From: an uncultured Leptospirales bacterium
Lineage (GTDB): Bacteria > Spirochaetota > UBA4802 > UBA5550
DNA: 64,000 bases
Direction of reading: 5' to 3'
Assembly (NCBI GenBank): GCA_964392365.1
Contig: CAYMPH010000010.1
Span: forward strand, 69,387-133,386
Below, piece after piece: positions 2,454-49,618 of this stretch. A program made the position numbers and the translations under genes. Under the pieces are notes generated by a model, which was not told where the DNA came from, ran no database searches, and saw only the letters and a program-made list of their open reading frames with translations. Numbering within the stretch: position 1 is the stretch's first letter; every line of letters starts with the position of its first letter.

Positions 2454-2807
2454 TTTTTCCTCTTCATTATATGAAATACAAAAATTTGATAAAAATACTT
2501 TTATAGTTTTTTAAAATAATTCTATTATCAATTTACTAATTGATAATATGCATAAAGTCTGTTAATAATGATGAGGAATGAAATACAAAACATCATAATC
2601 ACTATCAAAACCGTTTTATAAATACTTTTTATTCGTATACTCTTTTTTTTTAAGTTTGACTTATTTTGTTATATCTTACAGACAATGTAAGTTGTACACA
2701 ATGGCAATAAAAATATTATTTGTCCATCCATGTCTGGACAAAGTGAAAAAAAAATGGCTAATATTGATTTCACGGAAATTCCACATTGGGCTAAAAGATG
2801 GGTTCAA

Positions 2808-2844
2808 CGTCATATACACCAAGGGACGTTAGGCTAAAAACGCC
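2808..2844 (+). repeat. attC-like right half (R' core GTTAGGC at 2828-2834) preceding the DUF6615-like gene
   Basis: CGTCATATACACCAAGGGACGTTAGGCTAAAAACGCC contains a GTTRRRY core. AAACGCC (2838-2844) is complementary to GGCGTTT just after the gene's stop (3677-3683). Confidence 0.55.
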
Positions 2845-2868
2845 GTGTAATTTACTGAGGTATAATAA

Positions 2869-3672
2869 ATGAAACTTTGTGACACTTTTAGGAAACTTTC
2901 TTTTGAAACTTGGTACAAACTATATTCAGCAAAAACTGTTGATATGCAATTAGGTGAGGAAACAATTACTGATATTAATCTCCTTGAGCTTAAATTAAAA
3001 CATGGGAATGAAATAATAACAAAAACATTTACAAAACCAAAAGAATCAAATACTGGTGCTGATTGGGAATGGTGGTTAACAGGAAAATCCAAAAAATGGC
3101 TTGGAATAAGAATTCAGGCTAAAATATTAAATCATAAAACTAATAAATATGAACATTTGCATTATTATAAAAATAATAAACAAAAAACTAAAAAATATCA
3201 ATCCGATAGATTAGTTAAATCAAGCATGTCAGATTCAATAAAAAGAATTCCTTTATACTGTTTATATTCTTATTGGGATAATTTAAATTATAATGTTAAA
3301 TGGAAATGTGGTTCATACCCTGAAGTAATAGATAGTTACGGTTGCTCATTTATTAGTGCCTATGATGTCGTAAAGCTTCGTCAAGGAAATAAATGTAATT
3401 TATCGGATGTGTTAGATTACATGATTCCATGGCATTGTATTATCTGCTGTAAAGGTTTTGGTGGAGATGATTTGCCCAGTAGAGCATTAAATACAATTAT
3501 GGAATTAACTAAAATTTCATCTATAGTAGAAAATCCAAAAAATAAACCAAAATTTAAATTATATGATGAACCACCAGAGTATGTTAAATTATTACTAAGT
3601 AATGATTTAACTGAATTAACGGATGAGCATTTGAGAACAATAACAATTATCAATGAAAATTCAAATGAATAA
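2869..3672 (+). CDS. DUF6615-like PD-(D/E)XK nuclease-fold protein
   Basis: Motifs GEETITD...KPKESNTGADWEWW...IRIQAKIL (E..GAD..Q-A-K). Confidence 0.7.
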   Translation: MKLCDTFRKLSFETWYKLYSAKTVDMQLGEETITDINLLELKLKHGNEIITKTFTKPKESNTGADWEWWLTGKSKKWLGIRIQAKILNHKTNKYEHLHYYKNNKQKTKKYQSDRLVKSSMSDSIKRIPLYCLYSYWDNLNYNVKWKCGSYPEVIDSYGCSFISAYDVVKLRQGNKCNLSDVLDYMIPWHCIICCKGFGGDDLPSRALNTIMELTKISSIVENPKNKPKFKLYDEPPEYVKLLLSNDLTELTDEHLRTITIINENSNE

Positions 3673-18278: not shown

Positions 18279-18869
18279 TCATTTTCCCTTCATTATCTTT
18301 TTCTGCTTATTAAGTTTAATCCCTACTTTTAATATAAGATTATAAAGATCATTTAATTCATCCCCTTTTCTTAGAGCCCTTCCTGATATTTCTTTTCCTT
18401 TTAAAATATCCTGGAGGTATTTTGTCATAACATAAACAGGTCCGTAGATTTTATGAGTAATCCCAGTGAGGAATAATGTTAGTAAAATAGCAATAACTGA
18501 TAAAACACCTATTAAAATATAAAGTATATTCATCTGCCTAATTGATATTTGCCTCAAAACTTCAATTTGATCATTTATTTTTGTTAGGCTTTTATTATGA
18601 TCAGTTGTGATTTTTTCAGTATGAAGCTCATATTCTTTTCCAATGAGTTTTTTTGCAACAAACACAAAGGAATTTACAATATCATCTTCAGTTTTTATTG
18701 AAGAATTTAGATCACCGATTGCAAAATCAATTTCATTTATATTTTTTTTAAATGAAAAAGAAATTAAAGTAATAGCGAATGCCGATGCTGCAATATAAAT
18801 TATTATTATTGGAATGATTATCTTTAATTGCTTTCTTTTATTTATAATTTTAATATTTCTGTTTATCAA
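18279..18869 (-). CDS. Two-TM membrane protein with a HAMP-like linker
   Basis: Two hydrophobic helices; THKIYGPV...LRKGDEL HAMP-like motif. Confidence 0.6.
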   Translation of the reverse strand: MINRNIKIINKRKQLKIIIPIIIIYIAASAFAITLISFSFKKNINEIDFAIGDLNSSIKTEDDIVNSFVFVAKKLIGKEYELHTEKITTDHNKSLTKINDQIEVLRQISIRQMNILYILIGVLSVIAILLTLFLTGITHKIYGPVYVMTKYLQDILKGKEISGRALRKGDELNDLYNLILKVGIKLNKQKKIMKGK

Positions 18870-18937
18870 AATAGTTCGCTCCTGATTTTTAAATAGTTTC
18901 TGTAAAATTTATTTATAAGATAAATCATAGTCATCTA

Positions 18938-20086
18938 TTAAAATGTGAATTTTACTCCAAGGTCAACTGATAAATAATATCCAGCTAAAGTTTTTTCAAA
19001 GAACAATGTAAAGCCTGGAGTTAAATAAATTGATATTGTTTTATTAAATGAATACCCGACTTCACATTCAATTTTTACAAAAGGGTCATTAAATGTCTCA
19101 ATACCAGTTGAAAAAACATCTTTATATATGTGAAATGTATACCCGCCACTTAATATTGGGCTTAAGTTAAAATTTTTAGGTAATTGAAAATAATAACCCA
19201 GGCCAAGACCAAGTGATGCAATATTGTATAAATTTACAAAGTAAGTATTTTGAGTAAGGAAGTAATATCCAAAGTTTAAATTGATTATACTGTTTTCGAA
19301 TAAAAGATTTCTTAAACCAATATTTACAAAAGGTCCCAAGAATGGATTAACTGCTAATTTTTGAAATATCCCAAAAGGCTGAAGATAAGTAATACCAGTG
19401 GAAGCATAAAATTTCAACTTTACAGTAGTTTTTATTACTATTTCAAGTTGTGGATTGATTATTTCCTTTTGCTGTTCAAATGTTTCCTTCATTGGATCGA
19501 TTTGAATAATTTCATTTTGCGGAAGTGGTGCTTCATCAATTGATCCGATTTGTAGAGTATAATATTTTTCGACTTCCGCAGTGAATTTATTTAGAATTTC
19601 ATTAACTCCAGGTAATAAAACTTTTTCATTAATTTTATATAGAATTTTTCCTTCAAAAATTCTAATAAAAAAAAGTTCGATATGATATATATCAGCAAAT
19701 GTATTCTTGATTACATACTGTTCTTTACCTTCTTTTCCGAGAGGCCGGCTATCAATTAGTTTTTTGATTCTTGTTACTTTGCCAAAAACAGCAAAATTTA
19801 CTCCAATCTTTTTAGCTTCTTCAATTGCATTTTTTTCATTATAACATATTTTATTATCCGGAAGTTTTTTTAAATACTTGATTTTATCAAGATAATTTAA
19901 AAGAGACTCATTTATTTTGTTTTTTACTGATTGATCTGCATTAATATTTTGAAGTTTAAATATTTTTGTGCCTAAAACTTTTAAAGATAATTTAGAATTT
20001 CTGTCAGCGTATACAGGGGAAAGTATAAAAATAAGAGAAGATATACCGATTATTATCGTTTTTTTTAACAACCCTGATTTAATCAT
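18938..20086 (-). CDS. Secreted protein: CsgG/TolB-N-like domain + outer-membrane beta-barrel
   Basis: Signal peptide; AKKIGVNFAVFGKV motif; C-terminal amphipathic strands ending in Phe (GVKFTF). Confidence 0.55.
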   Translation of the reverse strand: MIKSGLLKKTIIIGISSLIFILSPVYADRNSKLSLKVLGTKIFKLQNINADQSVKNKINESLLNYLDKIKYLKKLPDNKICYNEKNAIEEAKKIGVNFAVFGKVTRIKKLIDSRPLGKEGKEQYVIKNTFADIYHIELFFIRIFEGKILYKINEKVLLPGVNEILNKFTAEVEKYYTLQIGSIDEAPLPQNEIIQIDPMKETFEQQKEIINPQLEIVIKTTVKLKFYASTGITYLQPFGIFQKLAVNPFLGPFVNIGLRNLLFENSIINLNFGYYFLTQNTYFVNLYNIASLGLGLGYYFQLPKNFNLSPILSGGYTFHIYKDVFSTGIETFNDPFVKIECEVGYSFNKTISIYLTPGFTLFFEKTLAGYYLSVDLGVKFTF

Positions 20087-20090
20087 GGGT

Positions 20091-23000
20091 TTATAGCCAG
20101 AGCTTATAATGGTAGCCCATGTCTACATATAAACTAAATGGACTTGTTGGAATGTCAATAAGCGGATTTATATCTGAACTATCTGTAGTTTTACCGGATA
20201 TTTCAGCTGGAATATGTAATGGATTTGGATCACCAGCATCAATACATTTACTTTTTGTAAGAATGGGTGTCTGCTTTAAAAAATAATATCCGATTGAATA
20301 GCCGAAGAATTTAACACTTGGATTTTGTAGTGCAAATGAAGGATTACTGTTAATATTACCATCTACAATCAGAAAGGAATTCGAACAAGAGTATGTTGCG
20401 TTTATAATACCAGAATTTGATATATTATTATTCCATATTATTGAATTAAGAATATTTATTGTACCTGTTGAAGTATTAGAAGTATTATATATTCCGCTGC
20501 CTGACGCTGAAATATTGTCTGCGATAGTACAGTTTGTTAATGATGCTGTTCCTTCATTGAATAATCCAGCTCCATTTGTTATTCCTATAATATTTTTCAT
20601 AATTAAACAATTGATTGCATAAAGATTTCCAGTTGGTGCGTTATATATTGCTCCGCCGGAAAAAACATTGTTATTTTCGCCAAAAACTGTATTTGTAAAT
20701 TTTGCCTTGTTCTTGTTATAAAATGTTCCATAAGTGTATAGCTTAGGATCGAATGCTTGAGGATCAGTGTTTTCTATAGGTATCGATTTTGTTATTCCAA
20801 AATTCCCTTGAAATAATGTTTCGTTAATGACGCTTTCTGATGCGCTGTCTGAATAAATTGCAGCGCCATGACCTGAAGTTTTATTTTCCTTAAAAATTGA
20901 TCCTGTAATTAAATAATTTGAAGTCTCCTTATTCTCTATATGAGCTGCCCCGCCTGAACACCTAATAGCAGGTAAAGTAGGATCAGAAATATCATTTTCA
21001 TTATTTGCAGAATTAGAATCAAATTCCGAGTTTTCAATTTTAAATTGAGCACCTATTATACTGTTATAATGATAAATTGCACCTCCCTTATTTAAAGCTG
21101 AATTATTAGTAAAAAAGCAAACAGTAAAGGCATAGACAGCTTTTGATACTGAATTATATTGATAAATTGCTCCTCCGGACAAGTCGAGTGATCCCCAGAT
21201 TGGAGTTGGCAAAGTCTCTAAGTCAAACATTGTTTTATTATTAGAAAATATTGTATTTACTATAGTTGTATTGTCCCTTACCTGAAGATCGCAGATAGCT
21301 CCGCCTTTAGAGCCTGATATTGATTTAGCGTAGTTAGAATCAAATGTTGAATTATTGATTAGAAGAAAAATATGCCTGTAGCCGCAGATTGCCCCGCCTT
21401 TTGTATCTTTATCCTGTACTGAGTTTTCCGCTTTGTTAAATGATAGAGTGCTGTTGTATATTTCACAAGAGCTATCAATATTATTATATATTGCTCCTCC
21501 ATACCTGAATGCTTTATTTGATTTTAATTCTGAATATGTTGGAATATTATTTTCATCAAAATATGTATCAATTCTAAGAATTCCTGAAGAATAGATTGCA
21601 CCTCCATTTTCCAGGGCTGTATTATCATTAATGGTTGAGCCGTAAATATGTAATGAACCTGTGGAATAAATACCTCCGCCATATTTAATATTTGTTTTAT
21701 TATTATGAATGGTAGAAATATTAATTTTAAGACCATTGTGTCTGGCGTTATATATACCGCCGCCGATAGGCTCGCCGGTTGTGCTAACTTTAATTGTATT
21801 GTCTGATATGATACATTTAGATAGAGTAAGAGATGTATTTGTCAGAGACTGAGTATATATGCCGCCTCCAGCTGATCCTGCTTCATTATTTTGAATTTGG
21901 CAGTTTTCTATGCTGGTTTTTCCTGTTGTATCGCTGATACCACCGCCGTAATTTTTAGCTGTATTTTGTGATATTGTACAATTTTTAATTATTGAATTTC
22001 CATTATTGGAAATTCCTCCGCCATCGTTATTTTTGGATTCATTGCTCATTATGTTATAATTTTCAATAGTGATGGGTGTTATTTGTGTTCCGCAATATTG
22101 ATCTATGTAAATAGCTCCACCGCTTCCTGAGGATTTATTTGATGACATATTACCTTTATTTGTGGTGTAAGTCATTATTGAATTTGTAACTTTGCCAAAA
22201 TATACGGCTCCGCCGTTTGCCGCGGCAATATTCCCTGTAAAATTATTATCAATCAGCTGGACGTTTGCTGTATTTCCCAAATAAACAGCGCCGCCCATCC
22301 CTGCTTCATTGGATGTAAAGATACAGTTTTTAATAAAAATATCGCTTGAGTTTATGATAAAAATTCCACCGCCTAAATAGCTATCTCCAAAACCGGTAGC
22401 CCGGCCATTTTGAATTGTAAAACCGTCAATTGTTACATTGGCAACGAGCTCCCCTCTTAAAATAGGATTTGCGTTGTTTCCATCAAGGATAGTTGTAAAA
22501 GTTCTATTTTGCTTGTTAATTTCATTTCCCTGGAATCCGCCATACAGCGAAACATCTGTTTTAAGCTCCTTAAATAAAGTATATGTCCCTTGAGCCACCC
22601 ATATTTCAGACCCCGCAGTAGAAGCATCAATGGCTTGTGAAAGTTCTTTATAAGCTGTATCCCAGGATTTTCCATCAAATAAACCATCCCATCCAGGGGC
22701 ATTAGCCCAAACATATATTACATTTGCAGGAACAACATTTACTGTAATTACGGATGAACTTTCGGCACCTTCTGAATCGGTGACTTTATAATTAAATAAA
22801 AATTTTCCAAAGTAGTTTTTACCAGCTGTAAATTTCCATTTTGTTCCAGTATATATAAGTTTACCATAATCCGGGGGAATGGGATCTATAAGAAAAATTA
22901 AATTCCCGCCATCCGGATTAATTACTGGAAAATCAAATTCAATCCATCCGGGTTCAAGTGGTTCTTCATGATTTTTAACTACCAGGCGCTGAGGCAACGC

Positions 23001-23963
23001 TACGGGGTCATCATGTACAGGGTTTACAGTGACTGTGACTGTTATTACATTGCTGTCGCTTTTACCATCATTTGCATAATAGGTAAAAGTAAACGTTCCA
23101 TTGTAATGATCTTTTGGCGTATATGTTACAATTGATCCGCTTATTGAATATGTTCCATATAAAGGATTTAATGAAACAATATATTGAAGCGGATCATTAT
23201 CAACATCTGTTACATTAAGTGGTATTGCCACAGGCATATGTTCATATGTTGATTGATTCGGCAAAGCGTGTGCAACAGGCGGGTCATTATCCGGATCAAT
23301 AGTTATTGTAACAGTTGCAGGCAAGCTGTCATTGAAACCCGGTGCTCTTGCGATAAAGATGAAAGAGTCTGAATCTGTTCCATTAAAATCGTCAGCCGGA
23401 TCGTATTCCCATTCTAAATTACTTATTTTAGTGAGTGTTCCATGTAATGGCTGCTGTTGAATAATAATATCAAGCGTAGCTAAATTCTTATTGTTAACTC
23501 TTAATTGAAATCTTACTGGTGTATCTTCCTTAGTTGCAACAGTACTATTATAAGCAGTCAGATCGTCTCCTATAAAAAGCGAGATTGTGGATATATTGCT
23601 CGAAGAAGTGCCGTCAGTTACATGGAATTTGAATGAATCAGGGCCATTATAGGTTGGATCATCCGGAGTATAGGTAAATTTATTTTTTTCGGGTTTATTC
23701 TGGGTTAATTTTCCTTTTACAGGGTAAGAGTCTATCATAAAGGCTACTGAATTGGAATTTTTATTAGTTTGCAGTTCAATTTCAACCGGCTGGTTCATAG
23801 GTGTTCGATAATATGCCGAAGATGTTTGAAATGGAATATAAATAGATTGAGAAACAATATCTTTAACATCGCTGTTTGAGCAGCCTGCGAGCATAAACAT
23901 GAATAACAGTATGGGATATAATATTTTTTTACTTTTCATATATTTTATATTTATTTTACTCAT
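20091..23963 (-). CDS. Large surface lipoprotein: tandem Ig/cadherin-like domains + Pmp-like (GGAI/FxxN) beta-helix
   Basis: Lipobox MLAGC; DGPDSF/DNDPP/YTP Ig repeats; more than 10 GGAI-type and FxxN motifs; C-terminal SKCIDAG. Confidence 0.8.
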   Translation of the reverse strand: MSKINIKYMKSKKILYPILLFMFMLAGCSNSDVKDIVSQSIYIPFQTSSAYYRTPMNQPVEIELQTNKNSNSVAFMIDSYPVKGKLTQNKPEKNKFTYTPDDPTYNGPDSFKFHVTDGTSSSNISTISLFIGDDLTAYNSTVATKEDTPVRFQLRVNNKNLATLDIIIQQQPLHGTLTKISNLEWEYDPADDFNGTDSDSFIFIARAPGFNDSLPATVTITIDPDNDPPVAHALPNQSTYEHMPVAIPLNVTDVDNDPLQYIVSLNPLYGTYSISGSIVTYTPKDHYNGTFTFTYYANDGKSDSNVITVTVTVNPVHDDPVALPQRLVVKNHEEPLEPGWIEFDFPVINPDGGNLIFLIDPIPPDYGKLIYTGTKWKFTAGKNYFGKFLFNYKVTDSEGAESSSVITVNVVPANVIYVWANAPGWDGLFDGKSWDTAYKELSQAIDASTAGSEIWVAQGTYTLFKELKTDVSLYGGFQGNEINKQNRTFTTILDGNNANPILRGELVANVTIDGFTIQNGRATGFGDSYLGGGIFIINSSDIFIKNCIFTSNEAGMGGAVYLGNTANVQLIDNNFTGNIAAANGGAVYFGKVTNSIMTYTTNKGNMSSNKSSGSGGAIYIDQYCGTQITPITIENYNIMSNESKNNDGGGISNNGNSIIKNCTISQNTAKNYGGGISDTTGKTSIENCQIQNNEAGSAGGGIYTQSLTNTSLTLSKCIISDNTIKVSTTGEPIGGGIYNARHNGLKINISTIHNNKTNIKYGGGIYSTGSLHIYGSTINDNTALENGGAIYSSGILRIDTYFDENNIPTYSELKSNKAFRYGGAIYNNIDSSCEIYNSTLSFNKAENSVQDKDTKGGAICGYRHIFLLINNSTFDSNYAKSISGSKGGAICDLQVRDNTTIVNTIFSNNKTMFDLETLPTPIWGSLDLSGGAIYQYNSVSKAVYAFTVCFFTNNSALNKGGAIYHYNSIIGAQFKIENSEFDSNSANNENDISDPTLPAIRCSGGAAHIENKETSNYLITGSIFKENKTSGHGAAIYSDSASESVINETLFQGNFGITKSIPIENTDPQAFDPKLYTYGTFYNKNKAKFTNTVFGENNNVFSGGAIYNAPTGNLYAINCLIMKNIIGITNGAGLFNEGTASLTNCTIADNISASGSGIYNTSNTSTGTINILNSIIWNNNISNSGIINATYSCSNSFLIVDGNINSNPSFALQNPSVKFFGYSIGYYFLKQTPILTKSKCIDAGDPNPLHIPAEISGKTTDSSDINPLIDIPTSPFSLYVDMGYHYKLWL

Positions 23964-24219
23964 GGATACCTGTTCTTGTGCTGAGTTATTAAAGCATTCA
24001 CAAGAATGACAGAAAATGTATGCCCACTGACATGATTTTTATTGCATAACCTGCCCTATTTATTAATTAACAAACCGGTATTCTTTATTACCGGCAAATT
24101 TTGATTAAACGCAACAAATTTCAAGAAATTAAAGTTTTTTTTTGGCATTTTTATTGCAATTAATCACTAATATATTGATGGATGCCTTTATATATATTAA
24201 GTGATAAAATTTCAGGTTT

Positions 24220-25758
24220 ATGACAAAAAAAATATTAATAATTTTAACTTTTCTGATACTTTTTTCAGGCTGTTCAAACATGCTCGCAGAAAAAACAGCT
24301 GACCTTTCGTTATATGAAAATATGTTAAACGCAGCATCACCTCAAGCATATTTTGCTATAAACGGAGAAAGCGTTAACTTATACTCATTAACAGCTTATC
24401 TTAATCTGAATGTGACCAATGGATATAAAATGCGTTTCAGTAACGACAATAGTATATGGTCTGAATGGGAAAATTACAGTTTTATAACTAATTGGAATTT
24501 ATCAGATGGAGATGGAGAAAAAACTGTTTTTGCTCAAGTTCAGAAAACCAGCGGGGATATTTTATATTTTAATGATTCTATACGGTATATTAATAAAATT
24601 ATTCCAACTGATTTAAACTCTGATTCTTTCTTCGGGCAAAGCGTATCAATTTCTTCAGACGGCAATGTAATAGCTGCTGGTACAAACATTGGAACAGGCG
24701 GCAGCGCATCCATATACAAGTGGTATACTGCAAACTGGCAGGAAACAAAACTTGAAAGACCATCATCAACTGAAAATGATTTTTATGGACATGCTGTTTC
24801 ATTAAATGGGTCTGGAAATTATGCAGCTGCAGGGGCATACGGATTTAACCAGATAGGAGCTGTTTATATATTCAAACAAAGTTTAATAATTACAGAACCA
24901 TGGGATTTAGTAAAAACTTTAAGTGCAGGCGATGGTTCTGTTGATGACTATTTCGGTTACAGCGTTTCAATGTCAAGAAACGGTTCAATTCTTGCAGTTG
25001 GAGCACCAGGTAAAGACTCAATTGATAAAATGAATACCGGAACCGTTTATATTTATGCCAAGGGATCGGACGATTGGTCTCTTATAACAACAATAACTGC
25101 GGATGCGATTGACCAGGAGGCAGAAGACAAGTTCGGAACAGCAGTTGCAGTTTCAGCAGACGGAACGTATATAGCTGTATCAACGCCCAATGCTTCCCAG
25201 TTCAAAGGAGCAGTGTATGTATATGAAAAAAGCGGAAATAACTATATTAAAAGAAAGAAGCTCATGGCAGATGATTCATCAATTAACAGCCTTTTAGGAA
25301 CTTCCATTTCAATTTCAGATAATGGCCTAATTATTTCCGCTGGAGCCCCGGGCTGTGACATTGCTGGTAAAGTAAATCAGGGAGCTGTTTATATTTTTGA
25401 ACATAACGGCTCTACCTGGATTCAAATAAAAAAACTGACTTCATCCGACGGGCTGTCTAATGACGGCTTCGGCAATTCCGTTTCATTATCATTTGATGGA
25501 ACTTTTTTATGCGCAGGATCAAGCAGATCTGATTTCCAGACTATGAGCGATTCTGGAGCTGTTTATATTTTTAATAGAAATGCAGGCATTTATACTGAAT
25601 ATAAAAAGCATATTGCTCTTGACGGAGGTACCGACTTTTTACTTGGCAGTGCAGTTGCCATTTCATACGACGGCGGGAAAGTAAAAACAGCAGCAGGTTC
25701 AAAAGGAGATTCAACACAAATACCGAGGAAAGGATCAGTATATGTATTCAGCGATTAG
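24220..25758 (+). CDS. FG-GAP (integrin-like beta-propeller) repeat lipoprotein
   Basis: Lipobox FSGC; repeated FGxSVS(I/L)SxDG...GA...GAVY(I/V)(F/Y) units. Confidence 0.85.
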   Translation: MTKKILIILTFLILFSGCSNMLAEKTADLSLYENMLNAASPQAYFAINGESVNLYSLTAYLNLNVTNGYKMRFSNDNSIWSEWENYSFITNWNLSDGDGEKTVFAQVQKTSGDILYFNDSIRYINKIIPTDLNSDSFFGQSVSISSDGNVIAAGTNIGTGGSASIYKWYTANWQETKLERPSSTENDFYGHAVSLNGSGNYAAAGAYGFNQIGAVYIFKQSLIITEPWDLVKTLSAGDGSVDDYFGYSVSMSRNGSILAVGAPGKDSIDKMNTGTVYIYAKGSDDWSLITTITADAIDQEAEDKFGTAVAVSADGTYIAVSTPNASQFKGAVYVYEKSGNNYIKRKKLMADDSSINSLLGTSISISDNGLIISAGAPGCDIAGKVNQGAVYIFEHNGSTWIQIKKLTSSDGLSNDGFGNSVSLSFDGTFLCAGSSRSDFQTMSDSGAVYIFNRNAGIYTEYKKHIALDGGTDFLLGSAVAISYDGGKVKTAAGSKGDSTQIPRKGSVYVFSD

Positions 25759-28069
25759 AAAAAATACATTTCTCGCCTTCTCTGCACTTATATTTTTAAC
25801 AGCCTGCTTGTCAACTGATAACAGTCAAAACTCGTCTGTATCTTCTATATCTGCTGTATTTGGAATTTCAACAACTGAATTAAAAGCAGCACAGATAAAT
25901 AAACCTTATATGGATACAATTACTGCAACTGGCGGTACGGATTATATTTTCTCGCTTATTGGAGTTCTTCCTGCAGGCCTTTCGCTTGAGAGTAATGGAA
26001 AAATTACTGGAACAGTAACAGCAGCAACAGGAATTTATAATTTCCAAATTAAATGCACTGATTCTGCAGATACTGCGAAAACTGATATTAAAGATTTATC
26101 AATTATAGTACTTGATAATACCTGGACTGTTATGCTACATTTTGCAATAGATAACAATATTGATTACGAGTATGAAAGAGATTATGGAATAGTAACAAAT
26201 TATATAAACACTCTTCAGACAATAAAAAGAAACGATACTTTGAACAAGTTGAAAATTCTTTTATTGATGGATGGCTTTAACGGCAATACAACTTTTAAAG
26301 ACGGAATATATAATCTAAGAGGATCGGCTAATTTAAGAGACGATTTAGTGGTTGATATTGCTGAATTAAATTCAGGAGACATTAAATCAACAAAGAACTT
26401 TTTTGACTACGTTGTAAAAAAATATCCAGCAAAGCATTATTTTTATTCTATATTCAATCATGGCGGAGGATTTGACAACACAAACAAAGAAGGAACCGGA
26501 CAAACCTGTTCTAATGAAAATCCGATAACCTCATTTTTTTCCTCTCTTATTAATCTCCTTGGCGGAATAGCTATAGATGAAACAAGCGGGAACGATACTT
26601 TATCATATTATGAACTGGGTAAAATAGCACAATATTTTTCAAAAATAACCGGAGGAGACAAGATTGACATTTTTTTCCCATTTGCCTGCCTTATGGGAAA
26701 TACAGAACTTGCCTATGAATTAAGACAAAATGTGAATTACCTATTATTCTCTGAAGAGGCATTTCCTGCGGATTACTGGTCATACGAGGCACTTAGTGGA
26801 ATAACCAGCGATTATAACATTACTCCAGTAAATTTAGGGAAAAAATTCTGCGACTCGGCGTATACTTATTTCAGCCAGGATTCAGTAAAACTTAATTTTA
26901 CATTGTCTCTTGTTGATAATTCAAAAATTGACGGGCTTATTATTGATTTGAATTCATACGCTGATGCAGCTAATAGCGTTATTCTTGGTGATACATCAAA
27001 AGCTGTATATTTCAACAATGCAGCAGACAATGCATTTTCAATGGATACTGACGGGCTGGATCCAAATTTTTATTATATTGATCTTGGCGGATATCTTAAT
27101 AATATTATAAATTCTCCCTCTATTGATGCAGCTGTAAAAAATAAAGCCCAGAGCGTAATAACTTCTCTGCAAACTGCTGTTTTATATACAAAAAATTACG
27201 GCTTTAATAATGCAACTGGAATGACAATATTTCATAACATCTGGAAATCGAGATATCAGTATGATGTAAATTTTTATAAAACCATACTTTCCGCAGGAAC
27301 AGGCTCATGGGCATTATATATGGAAACAATGACTAATCTTGAAACTATAATTAATCCTCCTCCGCTTGCTGATACTTATGAACCTGACAATTCCTCCTAT
27401 TCAAATATAATAAGGATTGGGGATATTCAAAACCATACTCTTCATGAAGGAACAGTAATAGATGCAGATTTATATACACTTGATTTAAGAGCAATGGGAT
27501 CATCGAAATATATATGCATTGAAACATCAAAATACAATATTGATACAAGCACTTCTATTTATCTTTATGATTCAAACGGCTATTTAATATCTACAGTAAA
27601 CAGTAATGTAACTGGAATGTATTCTAAAATTGTTACGAATTTAAATCCAGGTATTTACTATTTAAAGGTTAGAGGCTATTACACAAGATATGGTGATTAT
27701 AAAATAGCTGTAAGCGAGTACCTGGCTGATTCATATGAAAATGACGATTCTTTTGTAAATGCCAAAGTAATCCTGGCTGGTAGCCCGCAAACTCATAATT
27801 TTATTCCTTTTGGTGAATCTGACTTTTTAACATTTAATATAGATTCTGAAAAATCAGTTACTATTGAAACAAAACCAAACAGCCTTGGAAGCGATACAGT
27901 TCTTTATTTGTATGATAGCAATAAAGCTCTTCTTGAAAGAAACGATGATAACAATGGAACAAGGTATTCAAAAATTACAAGGACTCTGCCTTCTGGAGAT
28001 TATTTCATCAAAATCAGCGATGAATATACCAAAGGCGGGGATTATATTATAGAAGTGACTACGTATTAG
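25742..28069 (+). CDS. Clostripain-family (peptidase C11) lipoprotein with an N-terminal Ig (He_PIG-like) domain and C-terminal PPC-like domains
   Basis: Lipobox LTAC; WTVMLHFAIDNN, FNHGGG (His), FACLMG (Cys), LLFSEE; two DxYExxxS...DTxLYLYD repeats. Confidence 0.8.
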   Translation: MYSAIRKNTFLAFSALIFLTACLSTDNSQNSSVSSISAVFGISTTELKAAQINKPYMDTITATGGTDYIFSLIGVLPAGLSLESNGKITGTVTAATGIYNFQIKCTDSADTAKTDIKDLSIIVLDNTWTVMLHFAIDNNIDYEYERDYGIVTNYINTLQTIKRNDTLNKLKILLLMDGFNGNTTFKDGIYNLRGSANLRDDLVVDIAELNSGDIKSTKNFFDYVVKKYPAKHYFYSIFNHGGGFDNTNKEGTGQTCSNENPITSFFSSLINLLGGIAIDETSGNDTLSYYELGKIAQYFSKITGGDKIDIFFPFACLMGNTELAYELRQNVNYLLFSEEAFPADYWSYEALSGITSDYNITPVNLGKKFCDSAYTYFSQDSVKLNFTLSLVDNSKIDGLIIDLNSYADAANSVILGDTSKAVYFNNAADNAFSMDTDGLDPNFYYIDLGGYLNNIINSPSIDAAVKNKAQSVITSLQTAVLYTKNYGFNNATGMTIFHNIWKSRYQYDVNFYKTILSAGTGSWALYMETMTNLETIINPPPLADTYEPDNSSYSNIIRIGDIQNHTLHEGTVIDADLYTLDLRAMGSSKYICIETSKYNIDTSTSIYLYDSNGYLISTVNSNVTGMYSKIVTNLNPGIYYLKVRGYYTRYGDYKIAVSEYLADSYENDDSFVNAKVILAGSPQTHNFIPFGESDFLTFNIDSEKSVTIETKPNSLGSDTVLYLYDSNKALLERNDDNNGTRYSKITRTLPSGDYFIKISDEYTKGGDYIIEVTTY

Positions 28070-41349: not shown

Positions 41350-41940
41350 ATGAAAAATATAATAAATATTTCTATACTCATTGTAATAATTTTATTTTTA
41401 TATAATAATGTATTTACACAAGAGTATTTTACGATTGCTGGGGATTATGTAAATTTAAGAGAAAAAGCAAATTCCAAATCCAAAGTCGTTTGTCAATTAC
41501 GTTTAGCTGAAGATATTAAGTTTATTAAAAAATCAGGAATCCGAGAAAAAATTGGAAATATCGAAGGCGAATGGGTATATGTTGATTCTTTAAGGTTTAT
41601 CAATTCTATGTATGGGGAAACATATAAAGGATGGGTCTTAGATTATTTTTTAGCTGATATAAGCAAATTTCAAAGAGTAAAAAATTTCAAAAAATGCAAT
41701 TTAGATGGATATTCCGGTGATTGGCACGGACATTATGAATTTGCAAAAGATGGCAGTTATAAGAGTATAATAAATCAAACTACAAAGATAAATGGATATA
41801 TATATCAATTCAGAGATTTAATTATGTTGAAAGATCAACAAGGAGTAAATAGAGGAGTCTTTTTTATTGATAATAATAATATCTGCTTGTCATCAAGAGG
41901 TTTGAATGGGATTCCAATTCTCTGTGGCAAATGTGAGTAA
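41350..41940 (+). CDS. Secreted SH3-domain protein; probable cognate immunity protein
   Basis: 3 nt after the Rhs stop; signal peptide; VNLREKANSKSKVV...GEWVYV...GWVL SH3b pattern. Confidence 0.7.
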   Translation: MKNIINISILIVIILFLYNNVFTQEYFTIAGDYVNLREKANSKSKVVCQLRLAEDIKFIKKSGIREKIGNIEGEWVYVDSLRFINSMYGETYKGWVLDYFLADISKFQRVKNFKKCNLDGYSGDWHGHYEFAKDGSYKSIINQTTKINGYIYQFRDLIMLKDQQGVNRGVFFIDNNNICLSSRGLNGIPILCGKCE

Positions 41941-43197: not shown

Positions 43198-44522
43198 GAG
43201 GGTGTAAGGATTTTTGTGTAAATGGCCTTTGATCACATAGAAATCCTGTCCTCAAAGTAAACTACCAATTGATTCAAAGCAGCACCCCAATCCCTGATCG
43301 GCATCGTCCATCTTTTTGAAGCGTTCGTCAAGGCTAAAAACATAATTTTCAGGATCGCATCATCATTTGGAAATGCCGACCTGTTTTTCGTTACTTTTCG
43401 TAGACTGAAATTTAGAGATTCTATAGCATTTGTAGTATATATTATCTTTCGAATATCCGGAGGGTATGCAAAGAATTCGTTCAAATTTTCCCAGTTTGAT
43501 CTCCAGGATTTTGAAATCATAGGAAATTTTTTATCTCTCTTCTCAGCAAATTCATCAAGAGCAGCAAGTACTTCTTTTTCACTTGGTGCTCTGTAAATGG
43601 TTTTCAAATCTGCACAAATTATTTTTCGATCTTTCCAGGATACATATTTTACTGAATTTCGAATCATGTGAACGATGCACAGTTGAATTCGTGTCTGTGG
43701 GTATACAGAATTGATAGCTTCAGGAAATCCTTTGAGTCCATCAATGCAGGCTATCAGAATATCTTTTATTCCTCGGTTATAAAGCTCAGTAATAACACCA
43801 AGCCAGAATTTTGACCCTTCAGTTTCTGCTATCCAGAGGCCTAAAACTTCCTTTTTCCCCTCTAAATAAATTCCTATTGCAGTATAAACGGCTTTATTTA
43901 TCACTTTGCCATCAGTTCTACCCTTAACCATAATCGCATCAAGAAAAACTATCGGGTAGATATTATCAAGAGGACGATTTTGCCACTCCCTGACATCATC
44001 CATAATTGCATTCGTGACTTGACTTACCAGTTCAGGTGAAATTTCAACACCATAAATTTCATGCAGATAGGCCTGTATGTCACGGGTTGGTAATCCTCGA
44101 CCATACAAAGAAATAATCTTATCATCAAATCCTTCGAATCGTCTCTGATGTTTTTTTATTATTGTAGGTTCGAAATCGGCATTTCTATCTCTCGGAATTT
44201 TAATGTCGATATCACCGATTTCTGTTGTTACTGTTTTTTTGCTTTTTCCATTGCGTGAATTGACGGTTTGTTTGTTTTCTGCCTGGTGTTTTTCATAGCC
44301 GAGATGATTTTTCATCTCGGTGTTCAACGCCTTCTCAAGCATTCGTTTTGTAAAAAACTTGATCAGGCCATTTGAGCCTGCAATCTCTTCTGCTGTTAGA
44401 TTATCAAAATCAATTTCATCCAGAAGCTTTTCTACTGATTCTTCATTCTTTATTGCCATATCATTCTCCTTGGTATATCTTATATTAGATATGGCTGTTT
44501 ACACAATCTTTTTTACACGCTC
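43198..44522 (-). mobile_element. IS256-family insertion sequence
   Basis: Imperfect ~30-bp terminal IRs: GAGGGTGTAAGGATTTTTGTGTAAATGGCC vs (reverse complement) GAGCGTGTAAAAAAGATTGTGTAAACAGCC. No matching target-site duplication. Confidence 0.9.
43233..44459 (-). CDS. IS256-family DDE transposase
   Basis: RNG...PRDR, VFLDAI, IACIDGLKGF, QLCIVH and YTTNAIESLN motifs. Confidence 0.97.
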   Translation of the reverse strand: MAIKNEESVEKLLDEIDFDNLTAEEIAGSNGLIKFFTKRMLEKALNTEMKNHLGYEKHQAENKQTVNSRNGKSKKTVTTEIGDIDIKIPRDRNADFEPTIIKKHQRRFEGFDDKIISLYGRGLPTRDIQAYLHEIYGVEISPELVSQVTNAIMDDVREWQNRPLDNIYPIVFLDAIMVKGRTDGKVINKAVYTAIGIYLEGKKEVLGLWIAETEGSKFWLGVITELYNRGIKDILIACIDGLKGFPEAINSVYPQTRIQLCIVHMIRNSVKYVSWKDRKIICADLKTIYRAPSEKEVLAALDEFAEKRDKKFPMISKSWRSNWENLNEFFAYPPDIRKIIYTTNAIESLNFSLRKVTKNRSAFPNDDAILKIMFLALTNASKRWTMPIRDWGAALNQLVVYFEDRISM

Positions 44523-44572: not shown

Positions 44573-45124
44573 CTATGGGTGTTTGGAAAATACATCAAAT
44601 AAATCTCCAACTCCCTTCTCCTTATCAATTAATTCTCTTATATTTCTTGGTAAAAAATCCCAAGCTTCGTTTATAAATTTATTCCATTCTTCTTGATCTA
44701 ACTTGTCTTTAATCTCGTAACATTTTTCAACTAAATAATTAAAATCATTTCTCTTATCTTTTTTTATACGTTCGACTTCTAAAGGAAAGTAATTTTTAGC
44801 TAAATTTTCAAGAGCTGAATATATCAAAGTTTTCTTATTTATAAAATGTTTATGAATTTTTTTACCATCAGCAGATGAAAAATACTCTGATTTTTTACCC
44901 ATAAGAATATAGTGGATATCAAAATTAGGATATACTTCAGCTATTTTAATGAGCATCTCAGCAGAAGGATTACTTTTCCCTACTTCAATTGAAGAAATCA
45001 TCATATGAGAATACCCAACTTTTTCTGCAAATTGTTTTTGGGTAAGTTTAACTTCATCTTCTCTAAAAGAGCGCATTCTATCTTTAACACTCTCAGAATT
45101 TCTTTTATCTTTAGCTTTTCTCAT
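44573..45124 (-). CDS. XRE-family HTH transcriptional regulator (putative element repressor)
   Basis: LTQKQFAEKVGYSHMMISSIEVGKSNPS HTH_3 motif; divergent from the xis/int operon. Confidence 0.9.
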   Translation of the reverse strand: MRKAKDKRNSESVKDRMRSFREDEVKLTQKQFAEKVGYSHMMISSIEVGKSNPSAEMLIKIAEVYPNFDIHYILMGKKSEYFSSADGKKIHKHFINKKTLIYSALENLAKNYFPLEVERIKKDKRNDFNYLVEKCYEIKDKLDQEEWNKFINEAWDFLPRNIRELIDKEKGVGDLFDVFSKHP

Positions 45125-45361: not shown

Positions 45362-46015
45362 ATGAGAACTACAGCACGAAGAAAAAAAGTATTAAAAGTT
45401 TCAACGTATAAATCCTCAGAAAATAATTTAGGTGAGAAATCTATGTTTAGTCTAAAAAAAATTACAGAAGAGGAAATTCAAACAATTAATAACAGAGTAG
45501 TGTTACATTTGCAAATGAAAAAAAAGATTCTCATCCATACAAATTGTGCAAATAGAGGAGATGGTGCAAATCCAGATGATTCTCACTTACTAATAATATA
45601 TTCTCAGATTTTAGCTTTTCATTTAGAATTGGATTTAAATCCAATTCTAAATGATTTATTAAAAAATTTAGGTTCATATAAATTTGTAAACATATTTAAC
45701 AAGTATTTTTCTGAATATGCTGAAGTAATTGATGAGTCACAAAAACAATTTGCAGAAAAAGGTCAGAAAATTCGTATAAAAATTGAATGTTATCTAAAAC
45801 AAGGAAATAAGGTTCCAATCTTTGTAAAATCTAAATCAGTTTATGAAGATTTTCAATTATTAAGAGCTCACGCAGCGATATTATGTTTATGGAAGAAATT
45901 AGATTATAATCCAATTCAAGAAGAGTTTGATAAGGCTTATAATGAAAATCAATATATAGAAATCCTTCTTAAATATTTTTCAGATGAAGTTATAATAATA
46001 CATCAAGTAGAATGA
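45362..46015 (+). CDS. Hypothetical protein with an internal ~90-aa duplication
   Basis: LL...IL...LDLNPI...K...IFNKYFSE (aa 76-118) and LL...IL...LDYNPI...K...ILLKYFSD (aa 166-208). Confidence 0.65.
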   Translation: MRTTARRKKVLKVSTYKSSENNLGEKSMFSLKKITEEEIQTINNRVVLHLQMKKKILIHTNCANRGDGANPDDSHLLIIYSQILAFHLELDLNPILNDLLKNLGSYKFVNIFNKYFSEYAEVIDESQKQFAEKGQKIRIKIECYLKQGNKVPIFVKSKSVYEDFQLLRAHAAILCLWKKLDYNPIQEEFDKAYNENQYIEILLKYFSDEVIIIHQVE

Positions 46016-46075: not shown

Positions 46076-46351
46076 GTGACTATGCAAAAAGAAATTAAAT
46101 CAAACGATAGAAAAGAATTAATTCAAAAACCTGCATTGATAGATTTAAAAAGATTATCTGAAGAGGTATCCCTTTCAGTTCCTTTTCTAAGGCAATTAAT
46201 AACTGCAGGAATAATTAAACCAATAAAGGTTGGTGCAAGATTACTATTTGATTTAAATGATGTTGTTTTAAGTTTAAAGAAAAATAGCAATTATGATTTG
46301 ACTTTATTATTAATTTTGGCAGTCTTGAACCTGCTATTGGTTTGTTTATAA
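46076..46351 (+). CDS. Excisionase-like HTH DNA-binding protein
   Basis: LIDLKRLSEEVSLSVPFLRQLITAGIIKPIKVGARLLFD pattern; directly upstream of the integrase. Confidence 0.7.
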   Translation: MTMQKEIKSNDRKELIQKPALIDLKRLSEEVSLSVPFLRQLITAGIIKPIKVGARLLFDLNDVVLSLKKNSNYDLTLLLILAVLNLLLVCL

Positions 46352-46364
46352 GGTAGGTGAAAAA

Positions 46365-47423
46365 ATGCCATATAAACTAAAACCATCTAAAAGAAAGTCT
46401 TCTAATGATAAAAATTTTAAGTATGATTTGTCTTGTAGATATAAAGGAGAAGCATATCGGAAAAGGGTATCTTGTCCTAAATCTGAAATTCAAACTATTT
46501 ATCATAAATGGAAGGCTACAATCTTTGACGGAAGTATTAAAAAGAAAGACTGCTTGCTCTTTGAAAACCTGTCCTTTTATAGAGAATCTAAAAAAAATGA
46601 AGTATCTGAAAATTATTTCAAACTAACTGAATCAAAATGGAAAAAGATAAGAACTATTTTAAAAGATATTCCATTAAGTGAATTTAGAAGATGTGATGTT
46701 GAAAAAATAAAAATTACACTCATTAAAGAAGGTTATGGCAATTCAACTGTCAATAGTTATGTTGTACAAATGAGTGATTATTTTTCTTGGTTAATTAAAA
46801 ATGAATTTTGGGAAAAAGTTAATCCTGCTTTTAAACAAAAGTTAAAAGAACGCAATCAAAGAGTTATTGACTTAACAGATAATCAGATTAAAGAACTTTT
46901 AACACTTGCTGAAAAACAATCTGAAGAATTTTATTTAGTTATACTAATTGCAGTAATGTGTGGAATGAGACAAGATGAAATATTAAAATTAAAATGGGAA
47001 GAAATAGACTTAAAAAATAGAATAATTAAACTTCCCGCCAGTAGAACAAAAAATAAAAAATCAAGAAATGTTCCAGTGTTTGAAACTTTATTTAAACTCA
47101 TTCAGGATTATAGGAAACAGCACCCATTTCAAAAAGAAGTTTTTCAAAAATACTACAATTCTAAAAGATGGGGATTTCTAACTGAATGGGAAAAATTCAG
47201 AAATCAACTATCATTTGCAACACTTAATGATGAATTAAAGAAATTTAGATTTCATGATTTACGACATTTATCAGCCTCAATCATGATTCAAGCAGGATTA
47301 TCAATGCAGGAAGTTCAACAAATACTTGGACACTGTGATGTTAGAATAACTCAAACAAGATATGCTAACCAAGAAATAAAACATATCGACATCAATAAAC
47401 TTTCAAAAGTTCTTCCACTCTAA
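46365..47423 (+). CDS. Tyrosine recombinase/integrase
   Basis: Catalytic set GMRQDEI (R), RTKN (K), FHDLRH (HxxR), LGH and TRY (Y). Confidence 0.95.
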   Translation: MPYKLKPSKRKSSNDKNFKYDLSCRYKGEAYRKRVSCPKSEIQTIYHKWKATIFDGSIKKKDCLLFENLSFYRESKKNEVSENYFKLTESKWKKIRTILKDIPLSEFRRCDVEKIKITLIKEGYGNSTVNSYVVQMSDYFSWLIKNEFWEKVNPAFKQKLKERNQRVIDLTDNQIKELLTLAEKQSEEFYLVILIAVMCGMRQDEILKLKWEEIDLKNRIIKLPASRTKNKKSRNVPVFETLFKLIQDYRKQHPFQKEVFQKYYNSKRWGFLTEWEKFRNQLSFATLNDELKKFRFHDLRHLSASIMIQAGLSMQEVQQILGHCDVRITQTRYANQEIKHIDINKLSKVLPL

Positions 47424-47706
47424 AATACTCTAATTATAAAAAACAAATATAATTTTGTTGACTGTGATATACAGAATTATAAAGTGATATACAGAAATAT
47501 TGCATAATTGCCTGTTTTTTATACAACGATTATACAACGATTTTTTAATTTACTAACTATTACATATACAATTTTATATCAATGTTTAAAAAATTAGCTT
47601 TTTTATGAACATTTACAAATTTTGTTATTAAAAATTCAAGGGAAGCATGAGCCCGAAAACTCTGGGGGTCATGTGGTCGGAGGTTCAAATCCTCTCGTCC
47701 CGAAAT
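47388..47706 (+). repeat. att scar copy 1: integrase C-terminus + arm-type repeats + tRNA-Pro 3' half
   Basis: Aligns with 48468-48786; internal direct repeats TGATATACAGAA x2 and TATACAACGA x2. Confidence 0.8.
47662..47703 (+). tRNA. tRNA-Pro(GGG) 3' half only (attachment-site fragment)
   Basis: CTGGGGG-TCATG-TGGTC-GGAGG-TTCAAAT-CCTCT-CGTCCCG-A; no D-arm or acceptor 5' strand upstream. Confidence 0.75.
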
Positions 47707-47747
47707 GCATAAACAGATATTGCATAAAATATCACTTTAATTATTTA

Positions 47748-48419
47748 TCATTTTCTTTTTATAAAAACAATATTTTCTAAATCCCTCAGCTTATCGTCTG
47801 TAATATTTGTAAGCTTAATTTTATTTGAATCAATAATAACAATTGTAAAATTTGCATTTATCTTTTCAGTCCATGCTTTAGGATATCCTTTTTCGTCACA
47901 ACAAACCCCCCTGCTGATAAAACCGCTGGATTTAACATTATATTTTTTACCATCTTTTTCTAAATAATCAAGATTAAACTCCAGGCTTTCCATTAAATTA
48001 GGATAATAATTTATTTTTAAATCAGAAATTGAAAGAGAAAAATTTCCATCTGGAGAATCAGATGCCTTTGCAAAATTCCCCTGGATTTCTTTTGGAAAAA
48101 ATGATTTGATATTAGAATAAGTTTCGCTTAATAAAAATCCTCCAAAAACCCAGCCTGTTTTATCGTTCACTTCAACTTTCATCCATTTGCCAATTACACC
48201 TGATATTTTAACTTCTTCATTCTTTTTTTCAATAACATTGACTTTAGTATTATAAGGTAATAATTGAATCGGTATACCTGTATTTTCAGGAGTTTCTCTT
48301 ATCCAGAGCCCGTTTTTGGAAGAAACATAATAATAATCAGAATCTGCAGAAATTACTGTTTGTGGAAATATTAAAAAATAAAATCCAGTAATTGAAATTA
48401 TTAAAATAATTTTTTTCAT
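47748..48419 (-). CDS. Secreted SH3-domain protein
   Basis: Start revised to ATG 48419 (MKKIILIISITGFYFLIFPQ..); GLWIRETP...GKWMKV...GWVFGGFL. Confidence 0.8.
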   Translation of the reverse strand: MKKIILIISITGFYFLIFPQTVISADSDYYYVSSKNGLWIRETPENTGIPIQLLPYNTKVNVIEKKNEEVKISGVIGKWMKVEVNDKTGWVFGGFLLSETYSNIKSFFPKEIQGNFAKASDSPDGNFSLSISDLKINYYPNLMESLEFNLDYLEKDGKKYNVKSSGFISRGVCCDEKGYPKAWTEKINANFTIVIIDSNKIKLTNITDDKLRDLENIVFIKRK

Positions 48420-48467
48420 ATTAAATTTCTCTCTTATAACGATTAAAATTCTATAAAATAACAAAAC

Positions 48468-48786
48468 GACATTAATAGACTGTCAAAAGTTCTATCACTT
48501 TAAAATACTCTAAAAATAAAAACAAATATAATTTTGTTGACTGTGATAAACAGAATTATAAAATGATATACAGAAATATTGCATAATTGTCTGTTTTAGT
48601 ATAACGATTATACAACGGTTTATATTTAAGGTTAACAATTACATAAGCAAGTAATGTAAAAAAAGTACATAAAATAATCCTTTTTCTGTACATTAATAGA
48701 TTTTATTATTAAAAATTTAAGGGAAGCATGAGCCTGAAATCTCCTGGGTCATGTGGCTGCCGGTTCGAATCCGGTCGTCCCGAAAT
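48468..48786 (+). repeat. att scar copy 2: integrase C-terminal remnant (DINRLSKVLSL*) + arm repeats + second tRNA-Pro-like 3' half
   Basis: Homologous to 47388-47706 (DINKLSKVLPL*). Confidence 0.8.
48742..48783 (+). tRNA. tRNA-Pro-like 3' half only; anticodon loop not canonical
   Basis: TCCTGGG-TCATG-TGGCT-GCCGG-TTCGAAT-CCGGT-CGTCCCG-A. Confidence 0.65.
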
Positions 48787-48799
48787 CTACAGGTAAAAA

Positions 48800-49618
48800 A
48801 TGAATATAGATACTTTCTTCATTAAAGAACAGGTTATAAAACTAAAGTCCAAAGAGAAACAGCATGTATTCAAAGAACTGGTTGATAAGCTGCATGAACT
48901 CAATCTTATTGAAAACAAGGAAAGATTCTATGCCCAGATAATTCACAGGGAATCCCTTGAAAATACTGGAATCGGAAACGGCCTTGCCATACCTCATGCA
49001 CGGACTGAATCAGTTAAAGAATATATTTCAATATTCGGTATTCTCGATGAAGGAATTGACTATCAGTCTTTTGACGGCAAACCGGTCCGATATATACTTC
49101 TCAGCATTTTTCCATCTGAACTGAGCACTAAATATCTTTATTTAATAGGAATGATGGCAAGAATCTTCTCAAACAAAGAAAAAAGGAAAATTTTTGATGA
49201 GGAAACCAAACCTGCAAAAATCTACACCATGTTAAAAAATGAAGCTAAATCATATTTCGAAGCTTTGTCAGATAAAAAAAGCAGTTTCAAAGATATACCT
49301 GATACCCTTACAGGAGTTCCGTCTTCAGACCTTGATCTTCTAATCAGACTTGACCGTCTTTTTCATCTTTTCGATGAAGGTGAAAAAAGCGATGCTTTTA
49401 TTAAGAAAATTGATGATCTGAAAAAACTTATTGATGCAAGATCATTGAAATATTATGAAAGAATGAGAAGCAAACACAACAATCCTTTTTCAATTCTTGA
49501 AAAAGCCAGCTGCTCAGGTTGTCATCTGGGAATTCCTCCGATTGAAATTAATAAAATTAAAGAAGGTAAGGAAATTGCCATATGCACACATTGCGGAAGG
49601 TTTCTTATTGTAGTTTAA
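48800..49618 (+). CDS. PTS EIIA (fructose/mannitol/Ntr-type) domain fused to a C-terminal C4 zinc ribbon
   Basis: RESLENTGIGNGLAIPHAR (phospho-His motif); CSGCH...CTHCGRFL. Confidence 0.85.
   Translation: MNIDTFFIKEQVIKLKSKEKQHVFKELVDKLHELNLIENKERFYAQIIHRESLENTGIGNGLAIPHARTESVKEYISIFGILDEGIDYQSFDGKPVRYILLSIFPSELSTKYLYLIGMMARIFSNKEKRKIFDEETKPAKIYTMLKNEAKSYFEALSDKKSSFKDIPDTLTGVPSSDLDLLIRLDRLFHLFDEGEKSDAFIKKIDDLKKLIDARSLKYYERMRSKHNNPFSILEKASCSGCHLGIPPIEINKIKEGKEIAICTHCGRFLIVV

Follow-up and report, generated by a model that had tools for sequence, protein, structure and literature searches.

Two related integrated elements probably mark the right-hand end of a composite island in tRNA-Pro(GGG) of an uncultured Leptospirales bacterium

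Results

The stretch of DNA analysed here, referred to as the window, comprises 64,000 nucleotides (nt) of contig CAYMPH010000010.1 from an uncultured Leptospirales bacterium. We found that a locus in its right part is best read, with a probability of about 85%, as the right-hand end of a composite island that occupies tRNA-Pro(GGG), a gene flanked in this lineage by uvrC and a PTS-EIIA gene, and that contains two related integrated elements: E1, which has an intact integrase gene, and E2, which is decayed. The island would be about 76 kb long, an estimate that uses an unchecked left tRNA-Pro position. This reading draws on direct observation of the repeats at the locus, the identity of the tRNA, the empty site in relatives, the right flank, the 5' half of the tRNA beside uvrC, and the T-arm of the working tRNA, which is of the type seen in the first repeat copy.

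A repeat search and a MAFFT alignment delimit two direct repeats of 332 nt each, at 47375-47706 (copy 1) and 48455-48786 (copy 2), with an offset of 1080 nt. Each copy runs from the C-terminus of an integrase through arm-type repeats to the 3' part of a tRNA, so that the two copies of about 320 bp reported in an initial annotation, made from the sequence alone, were confirmed at 332 bp each. Conservation between the copies is patchy, with 83% identity over the last 11 integrase codons and the stop, 89% over the arm-repeat block, 61% over the spacer, 89% over the 44 nt that adjoin the core on its element side, 67% over the end of the variable loop and the T-arm, and 100% over the acceptor strand, which is CGTCCCG-A in both. 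The right flanks are unrelated (46%). The T-arms read GGAGG/TTCAAAT/CCTCT in copy 1 and GCCGG/TTCGAAT/CCGGT in copy 2, and the four differences between their stems form two fully compensated pairs. The compensatory changes and the common acceptor strand had both been noted in the initial annotation and can be read directly from the letters. The sole gene between the copies encodes an SH3_3 protein (PF08239).

ARAGORN identified no tRNA in the window, and an Rfam search of the fragments at a permissive E<=10 returned no tRNA or tRNA-like family. The identification comes from a pattern scan in which each of 185,579 species was represented by one genome and which gave one match in Leptospirales, the metagenome-assembled genome (MAG) L009, a co-resident relative. 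This MAG has a complete tRNA-Pro(GGG), which reads CGGGGCG TA GCGC AGTCAGGTA GCGC A CATGA CTGGGGG TCATG TGGTC GGAGG TTCAAAT CCTCT CGTCCCG A. The 43 nt that begin at C32 in its anticodon loop and end one base after A73 are identical (100%) to window positions 47662-47704 on the forward strand, which identifies the tRNA part of copy 1 as positions 32-73 of tRNA-Pro(GGG) plus 1 nt. Apart from the two copies, blastn-short found no tRNA-Pro fragment in the 64-kb window. Fragments of tRNA-Pro(GGG) that also start at CTGGGGG were present in seven unrelated genomes (L004, L019, L022, L026, L032, L033 and L050), which points to a recurrent integration position.

The hosts of these seven fragments belong to Bacteroidota, Actinomycetota, Thermodesulfobacteriota and Phycisphaerae and include a delta-proteobacterial MAG. 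In L032, the full gene, one fragment starting at CTGGGGG and a further partial tRNA match were observed within 8 kb. A brief look at 8-kb chunks did not confirm integrases adjacent to the other fragments starting at CTGGGGG.

The tRNA part of copy 2 (48744..48783, forward strand) ends 16 nt before a gene for a PTS-EIIA and zinc-ribbon protein (48800..49618, forward strand; PF00359, PF02591). This is a conserved core gene with 245 homologues in Spirochaetota; it is the ancestral right neighbour of the tRNA, and with it the core genome resumes. Two relatives with an empty site (L068 and L069) have uvrC and then tRNA-Pro(GGG), followed after 40 nt by PTS-EIIA, and in a third (L070) an intact tRNA-Pro(GGG) is followed after 47 nt by PTS-EIIA. 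The closest relative by the PTS-EIIA gene (L067, 87% amino acid identity) has a contig that starts inside the tRNA and reads TGGTC GCTGG TTCGAAT CCAGT CGTCCCGA AATCTACAGGTAAAAAATG. The copy 2 flank AATCTACAGGTAAAAAATG is identical in this relative, and its T-arm, GCTGG/TTCGAAT/CCAGT, is one compensated pair away from that of copy 2. The position of copy 2 beside PTS-EIIA, together with the match in flank and T-arm type, argues that copy 2 is the terminal right attachment site (attR) and holds the oldest 3' half at the locus. Its anticodon-loop G-run is shortened to CTGGG (two G lost), and the exact copy 2 variant was found in none of the 185,579 species genomes.

In L070 (positions 1-3233), the 5' side of the tRNA-Pro is occupied not by uvrC, as in other relatives, but by a fragment of an integrase together with a transposase pair of the IS3 family, so this side is also disturbed in some lineages. 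A co-resident strain matches the start of the PTS-EIIA gene (window 48796-48837) from 4 nt before the ATG, and further upstream it differs from the copy 2 flank. This branch entering the assembly graph before the PTS-EIIA ATG implies that the island of the co-resident strain ends differently.

A matching 5' half, on which the initial annotation had made its reading depend, does exist: in a relative, uvrC is followed by a tRNA-Pro(GGG) that has a CATGA/TCATG anticodon stem and whose 3' part is identical to copy 1. The annotation had expected a 5' acceptor strand CGGGA(C/T)G; the strand found is CGGGGCG, which with CGTCCCG gives a G5.U68 wobble. A UvrC protein (P0125) that is 92% identical to the C-terminal L009 UvrC query is encoded on a contig of 137,440 nt, as are the window's integrase and PTS-EIIA proteins (P0001 and P0005), and the window's contig therefore encodes uvrC. 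The contigs of four rock-metagenome runs that hold the window were compared with the uvrC-tRNA stretch of L009. Run X1 contains two uvrC alleles, one identical to L009 (depth 7.4-7.9) and the other 86-91% identical (depth 6.7-7.7); the depth of the window in this run is 6.9, like that of the second allele. All 17 listed substitutions in the second allele are synonymous or give the residues of P0125 (I31V, N33D).

Both uvrC alleles merge into one unbranched unitig, which corresponds to L009 747-886 and takes in the 77 nt directly before the tRNA as well as the tRNA itself through its T-loop. The unitig ends at 886, the point where 31-mers lie wholly within the 43-nt block common with copy 1, which is why the last 12 nt of the genome's tRNA-Pro are unassignable. 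Taken together, the second allele and the shared unitig indicate that in this genome uvrC precedes a tRNA-Pro(GGG) whose 5' strand is CGGGGCG, whose anticodon stem has CATGA and whose T-stem has the 5' strand GGAGG, which is the type of copy 1 and not of copy 2. With uvrC on the window's contig, the allele that encodes P0125 thus runs to the T-loop of tRNA-Pro; the reading stops there, short of the final 12 nt, and gives neither orientation nor distance.

Several further observations concern the surroundings of this gene. The co-resident strains rise from ~86% identity at the 3' end of uvrC to 100% over the 77 nt upstream and the tRNA, a jump that could be due to promoter and tRNA conservation or to recent exchange at a hotspot. 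Besides the L009 flank, two sample contigs have ...CGTCCCGAATAAAAA and then diverge into GCTCTGATAATATCAGGGCTTTTTTT, a terminator-like hairpin, and ATGACACTTGCATACGCTGC. One of these may be the tRNA flank of this genome and the other a third attachment (att) junction beyond the window; both strings are absent from the window and from every locus retrieved. The sequence of a relative with an 86% identical UvrC (L072) stops 117 nt past uvrC, and this stretch contains no tRNA. The Logan assemblies branch 1.6 kb to the left of the window.

The position of the exchange can be narrowed from the T-arms. Since both are internally complementary, the crossover should lie to the left of position 47; an exchange within or to the right of the T-arm would leave stem strands from different parents and a mismatched scar. 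We infer that it falls between positions 32 and 46 (CTGGGGGTCATGTGG), in the region of the anticodon loop and stem, where CACATGA and TCATGTG form a perfect inverted repeat around a 7-nt loop. A crossover in the T-loop was considered and rejected, as it needs mismatched T-stems in both the element-borne attachment site (attP) and the regenerated tRNA.

The acceptor stem points to a mixed origin of the working gene. In L009, CGGGGCG faces CGTCCCG (G5.U68), and in the empty-site relatives CGGGGCG pairs with CGCCCCG; most other tRNAs with CGTCCCG begin CGGGACG. The G5.U68 wobble is consistent with a native 5' half to which a foreign 3' half has been added, and integration accounts for the difference between the T-arm of the working tRNA and that of the half left on the ancestral flank. 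The suggestion in the initial annotation that the host's working tRNA-Pro is a chimera is thus supported by its copy-1-type T-arm, set against the half on the ancestral flank, and by G5.U68, with the caveat that copy 2 also has U68.

The first element, E1, has a compact recombination module. Its tyrosine integrase (46365..47423, forward strand; 352 amino acids) is intact, matches PF00589 over positions 3-169 of 172 (E=2e-29), and has the catalytic motifs GMRQDE (R), HDLRH (HxxR), LGH and TRY (Y) in its translation; an N-terminal match to the Int_N domain PF24624 (E=0.0027) is below the cut-off. Among 5.8 billion proteins, the closest homologues are <=34% identical, which makes the integrase, judged by its protein sequence, an isolated lineage without close relatives, and these homologues are too distant for their att sites to be comparable. 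A candidate excisionase of 91 amino acids (46076..46351, forward strand) lies 14 nt upstream of the integrase gene; its HTH_17-like match (PF12728, E=0.003) is below the curated cut-off, and the label comes from position and size. Further to the left are a 217-amino-acid protein without a Pfam match (45362..46015, forward strand), an HTH_3 regulator of the cI/Cro type (44573..45124, reverse strand; PF01381, E=6e-14) and, at the left side of the module, an IS256-family (Mutator) transposase (43233..44459, reverse strand; PF00872, E=2e-120). To the right of the integrase, the E1 P arm (47427..47661, forward strand) contains the direct arm-type repeats GATATACAGAA twice (47466, 47486), ATATTGCATAA (47497) and TATACAACGAT twice (47520, 47531), followed by the conserved core-proximal block AAGGGAAGCATGAGCCCGAAAACT. 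The recognisable E1 module spans 2.9 kb only.

A distant counterpart was observed in L062 (6001-7317), where a 34%-identical integrase homologue is followed by two arm-like repeats TATGGTCAA and a complete tRNA-Lys(CTT). That tRNA is on the opposite strand and at the contig end, which is the opposite geometry to the element in the window.

The second element, E2, extends over 1.08 kb, from 47705 to 48743, and retains an SH3 gene, 11 integrase codons and its arms. Its only surviving gene encodes the SH3_3-domain protein (47748..48419, reverse strand; PF08239, E=2.5e-8). The integrase remnant (48468..48503, forward strand) consists of the last 11 codons and the stop, DINRLSKVLSL* as compared with DINKLSKVLPL* in E1, with in-frame stops just upstream, so the earlier description of a second element with about 11 integrase codons and one SH3 gene holds. 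The E2 P arm (48504..48743, forward strand) has the shared arm-type repeats at 48545, 48565, 48576 and 48609. On the other side of the element, a putative P' arm (47709..47727, forward strand) carries the arm-type site ATAAACAGATATTGCATAA, which contains the 11-mer ATATTGCATAA. This 11-mer occurs three times in the 64-kb window, all at this locus, where 0.36 occurrences would be expected: once in each P arm and once at 47717, inside ATAAACAGATATTGCATAA, five nt to the right of the end of the copy 1 tRNA part. To the right of copy 2 there is no arm-type site, the match being 11/19. At an equal offset, the flank of the L009 tRNA matches at 14/19 positions (p about 0.006, or ~0.6% of control windows), and the empty-site relatives match at 7-10/19. 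The role of these arm-type sites is predicted from their sequence and placement; with repeats in the P arm, one site to the right of copy 1 and an Int_N match below the cut-off, the E1 integrase is a candidate lambda-type heterobivalent enzyme that would bind them. Copy 1 thus combines the E1 P arm, the tRNA core and the E2 P' arm, which makes it an internal junction resembling attP, as a tandem yields.

The E2 SH3 protein was also compared with the SH3 protein encoded after an Rhs toxin gene (41350-41940). The two are 21% identical over 95 amino acids (pairwise E=0.003), a weak likeness that gives no sequence support to E2 carrying a spare copy of the Rhs-linked immunity gene.

Discussion

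In the history that we propose, the lineage-specific tyrosine integrase would recombine an element-borne attP, made up of arm-type repeats and a 43-nt tRNA copy from anticodon-loop position 32 to the 3' end, with the tRNA-Pro gene. The tRNA part of the element would complete the gene at the left end, and the earlier 3' part would be pushed to the right end beside the integrase. Two related elements would have entered in this manner, E1 with an intact regulator, candidate excisionase and integrase, and E2, now decayed, with both arms kept; the regenerated tRNA-Pro(GGG) would end ...GGAGGTTCAAATCCTCTCGTCCCGA. The order of insertion is ambiguous, as E2 could have come first, with E1 then entering the regenerated tRNA, or E1 first, with E2 then entering the E1 attR. 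If E1 came first, the tRNA part of copy 1 never served in a working tRNA. The claim of two successive integrations at tRNA-Pro is supported, and the accompanying claim, that each displaced a different 3' half, describes just one of two possible histories.

A number of points weigh against this reading. No tRNA fragment marks E1 off from the 47 kb to its left, and the IS256 gene abuts the E1 module. With no such fragment to the left of IS256 in the window, the left part of E1 is either rearranged or very long, and the share of the island that belongs to E1 cannot be fixed from the sequence. Copy 2 and the closest relative carry U68, like element-type halves, whereas C68 is present in the empty-site relatives, so that copy 2, instead of being the pristine host half, may derive from an earlier element or replacement or may have mutated. 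The contig of the closest relative starts inside the tRNA, so that this sequence may itself be a scar and not an intact gene. For the working tRNA-Pro, the last 12 nt, the 3' flank and the orientation are predicted from assembly-graph logic in one run and from an unchecked position of the gene. Circular or deleted forms were absent from Logan contigs, which drop rare variants, and exact-pattern scans with the element-side core block found no related attP in viral or JGI metagenome contigs.

The strongest alternative is that the E1-E2 tandem arrived as one pre-formed composite, which had excised from its outer att sites in a donor, with a single integration in this lineage. Composites that pair a decayed with an intact element are known to be transferred together (PMC5704250), and the working tRNA and copy 1 have T-arms of equal type, as would be expected from one element family. 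A pre-formed composite is, however, indistinguishable from accretion in situ with the present data, and two recombination events are still required somewhere to make the tandem, so that this alternative changes their place only. We consider it unlikely.

A second possibility concerns the present state of E2 and not the origin of the tandem. The arm and core-proximal blocks of E2 have been kept while the spacer between them has drifted (89% against 61%), and E2 may for this reason be live, as a one-gene mini-element with a secreted SH3 protein and an unusual attP core, moved in trans by the E1 integrase and excisionase; we regard this as improbable. What may set the attP core of the family apart is that the cognate half-site, GCATGA, is separated from the crossover region by one helical turn (11 bp) and forms part of an extended imperfect palindrome, GCATGAGCCC ... 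GGGGGTCATG.

This palindrome was observed on the element side of both copies (47645-47676 and 48726-48756) as GCATGAGCC(C/T) and GGG(GG)TCATG with a 9-nt centre. It contains a copy of the 5' strand of the anticodon stem whose distance from the loop exceeds that in the tRNA by 11-12 nt, and it could be a candidate accessory core-type site. The palindromes of copies 1 and 2 are homologous and count as one observation, not two.

Two further accounts were considered. In the first, a single attR and its adjacent gene underwent simple local tandem duplication by unequal crossing-over or replication slippage and then drifted, and two direct repeats at a spacing of 1080 nt that enclose a single gene would fit this. 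Yet the right flanks are unrelated, so the unit is not a true tandem, and conservation is high in the arms and core and low in the spacer, as one expects where diverged elements retain their functional sites. Drift in a dead copy would not have left each of the four T-stem differences compensated. Copy 2 matches the sequence of a relative at the equivalent locus, and an arm-type site follows copy 1. The initial annotation had singled out a local duplication without integrase context as a finding that would overturn it; what we found was an empty site in relatives, an ancestral flank at copy 2, an arm-type site to the right of copy 1 only and a spacer at 61%, and duplication is very hard to sustain. 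Weaker still is the proposal that the fragments are functional RNA genes, either 3' halves of split tRNAs or a tRNA-like RNA lacking a D-arm with AGGGAAG as its 5' acceptor strand, which is scarcely credible: the compensatory T-arm changes, the conserved upstream GCATGA...TCATG extended hairpin and the pairing of AGGGAAG with CGTCCCG at 5/7 positions speak for it, but ARAGORN recognised nothing in the window and Rfam nothing at E<=10, a tRNA-Pro(GGG) is already present in the genome (assembly contigs), the copy 2 anticodon loop lacks two G, the acceptor pairing is invariant between the copies and so offers no covariation evidence, and the integration model accounts for every feature.

Read as two related elements integrated at one tRNA gene, the locus is a clear but ordinary case of a well-known process and changes no concept. 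Regeneration of a tRNA gene by element sequence, displaced fragments, tandem arrays, and decayed elements next to intact ones are all familiar from textbooks and databases, and phage P22 at thrW is the classic example of an anticodon-centred attP. The Islander database lists 2,083 anticodon-centred islands (class 'A'), 3,760 islands with a 3' tDNA fragment, and 125 tandem arrays of two or more islands at one tDNA (PMC4383910). The window resembles class 'A' in its tyrosine integrase, in an attP that holds the tRNA from the anticodon loop to the 3' end, in a gene that was probably regenerated, and in a displaced, directly oriented 3' fragment at which the island ends. It differs in that the integrase is at the fragment end of the island, reads towards the fragment and is so distant from any other protein, and in that the island is very large, mosaic and interrupted by IS256. 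As in the Islander tandem arrays, several tDNA fragments in the same orientation lie downstream of one tRNA gene, although E2, with its 11 integrase codons, falls short of the rule that each member has its own integrase.

The closest parallel to the pairing of a decayed and an intact element may be the ICESt1-related elements of Streptococcus thermophilus, where a decayed cis-mobilizable element (CIME) and an intact one are described as joined by accretion (Pavlovic 2004 and Bellanger 2011, as summarised in PMC5704250). There, a decayed member that has lost its integrase keeps both att sites and forms a tandem with a related element whose recombination module works, and the internal junction is a hybrid att site. 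E2, with an integrase remnant only, is bounded by copies 1 and 2, both of which have conserved arm sites that the E1 integrase may recognise. Compared with the elements as summarised there, the E1 module has no conjugation or mobilisation genes that we could see, and the target is a tRNA gene.

These results establish where a large island of defence and toxin genes truly ends on the right, and for this Leptospirales lineage they identify an integration hotspot in the ancestral site of uvrC, tRNA-Pro and PTS-EIIA. They also supply attP and attB (the chromosomal attachment site) sequences for an integrase lineage without close relatives.

L009 also holds an island at tRNA-Pro, as its gene order of uvrC, tRNA-Pro and then homologues of window genes 18279-23963 (~70% nucleotide identity), not PTS-EIIA, implies. 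Directly after the tRNA-Pro, L009 900-7861 aligns with window 18279-28069 and has genes for a 196-amino-acid protein, a 382-amino-acid protein and a 1290-amino-acid Big_9/cadherin/PMP surface protein. The uvrC genes of L009 and of the window's genome are 86-91% identical, whereas the island genes share ~70% of their nucleotides. The window's genome has an estimated ~46 kb more DNA between the 18279-23963 genes and the tRNA, with no scar between them, and a clostripain-like gene is inverted in L009 relative to the window.

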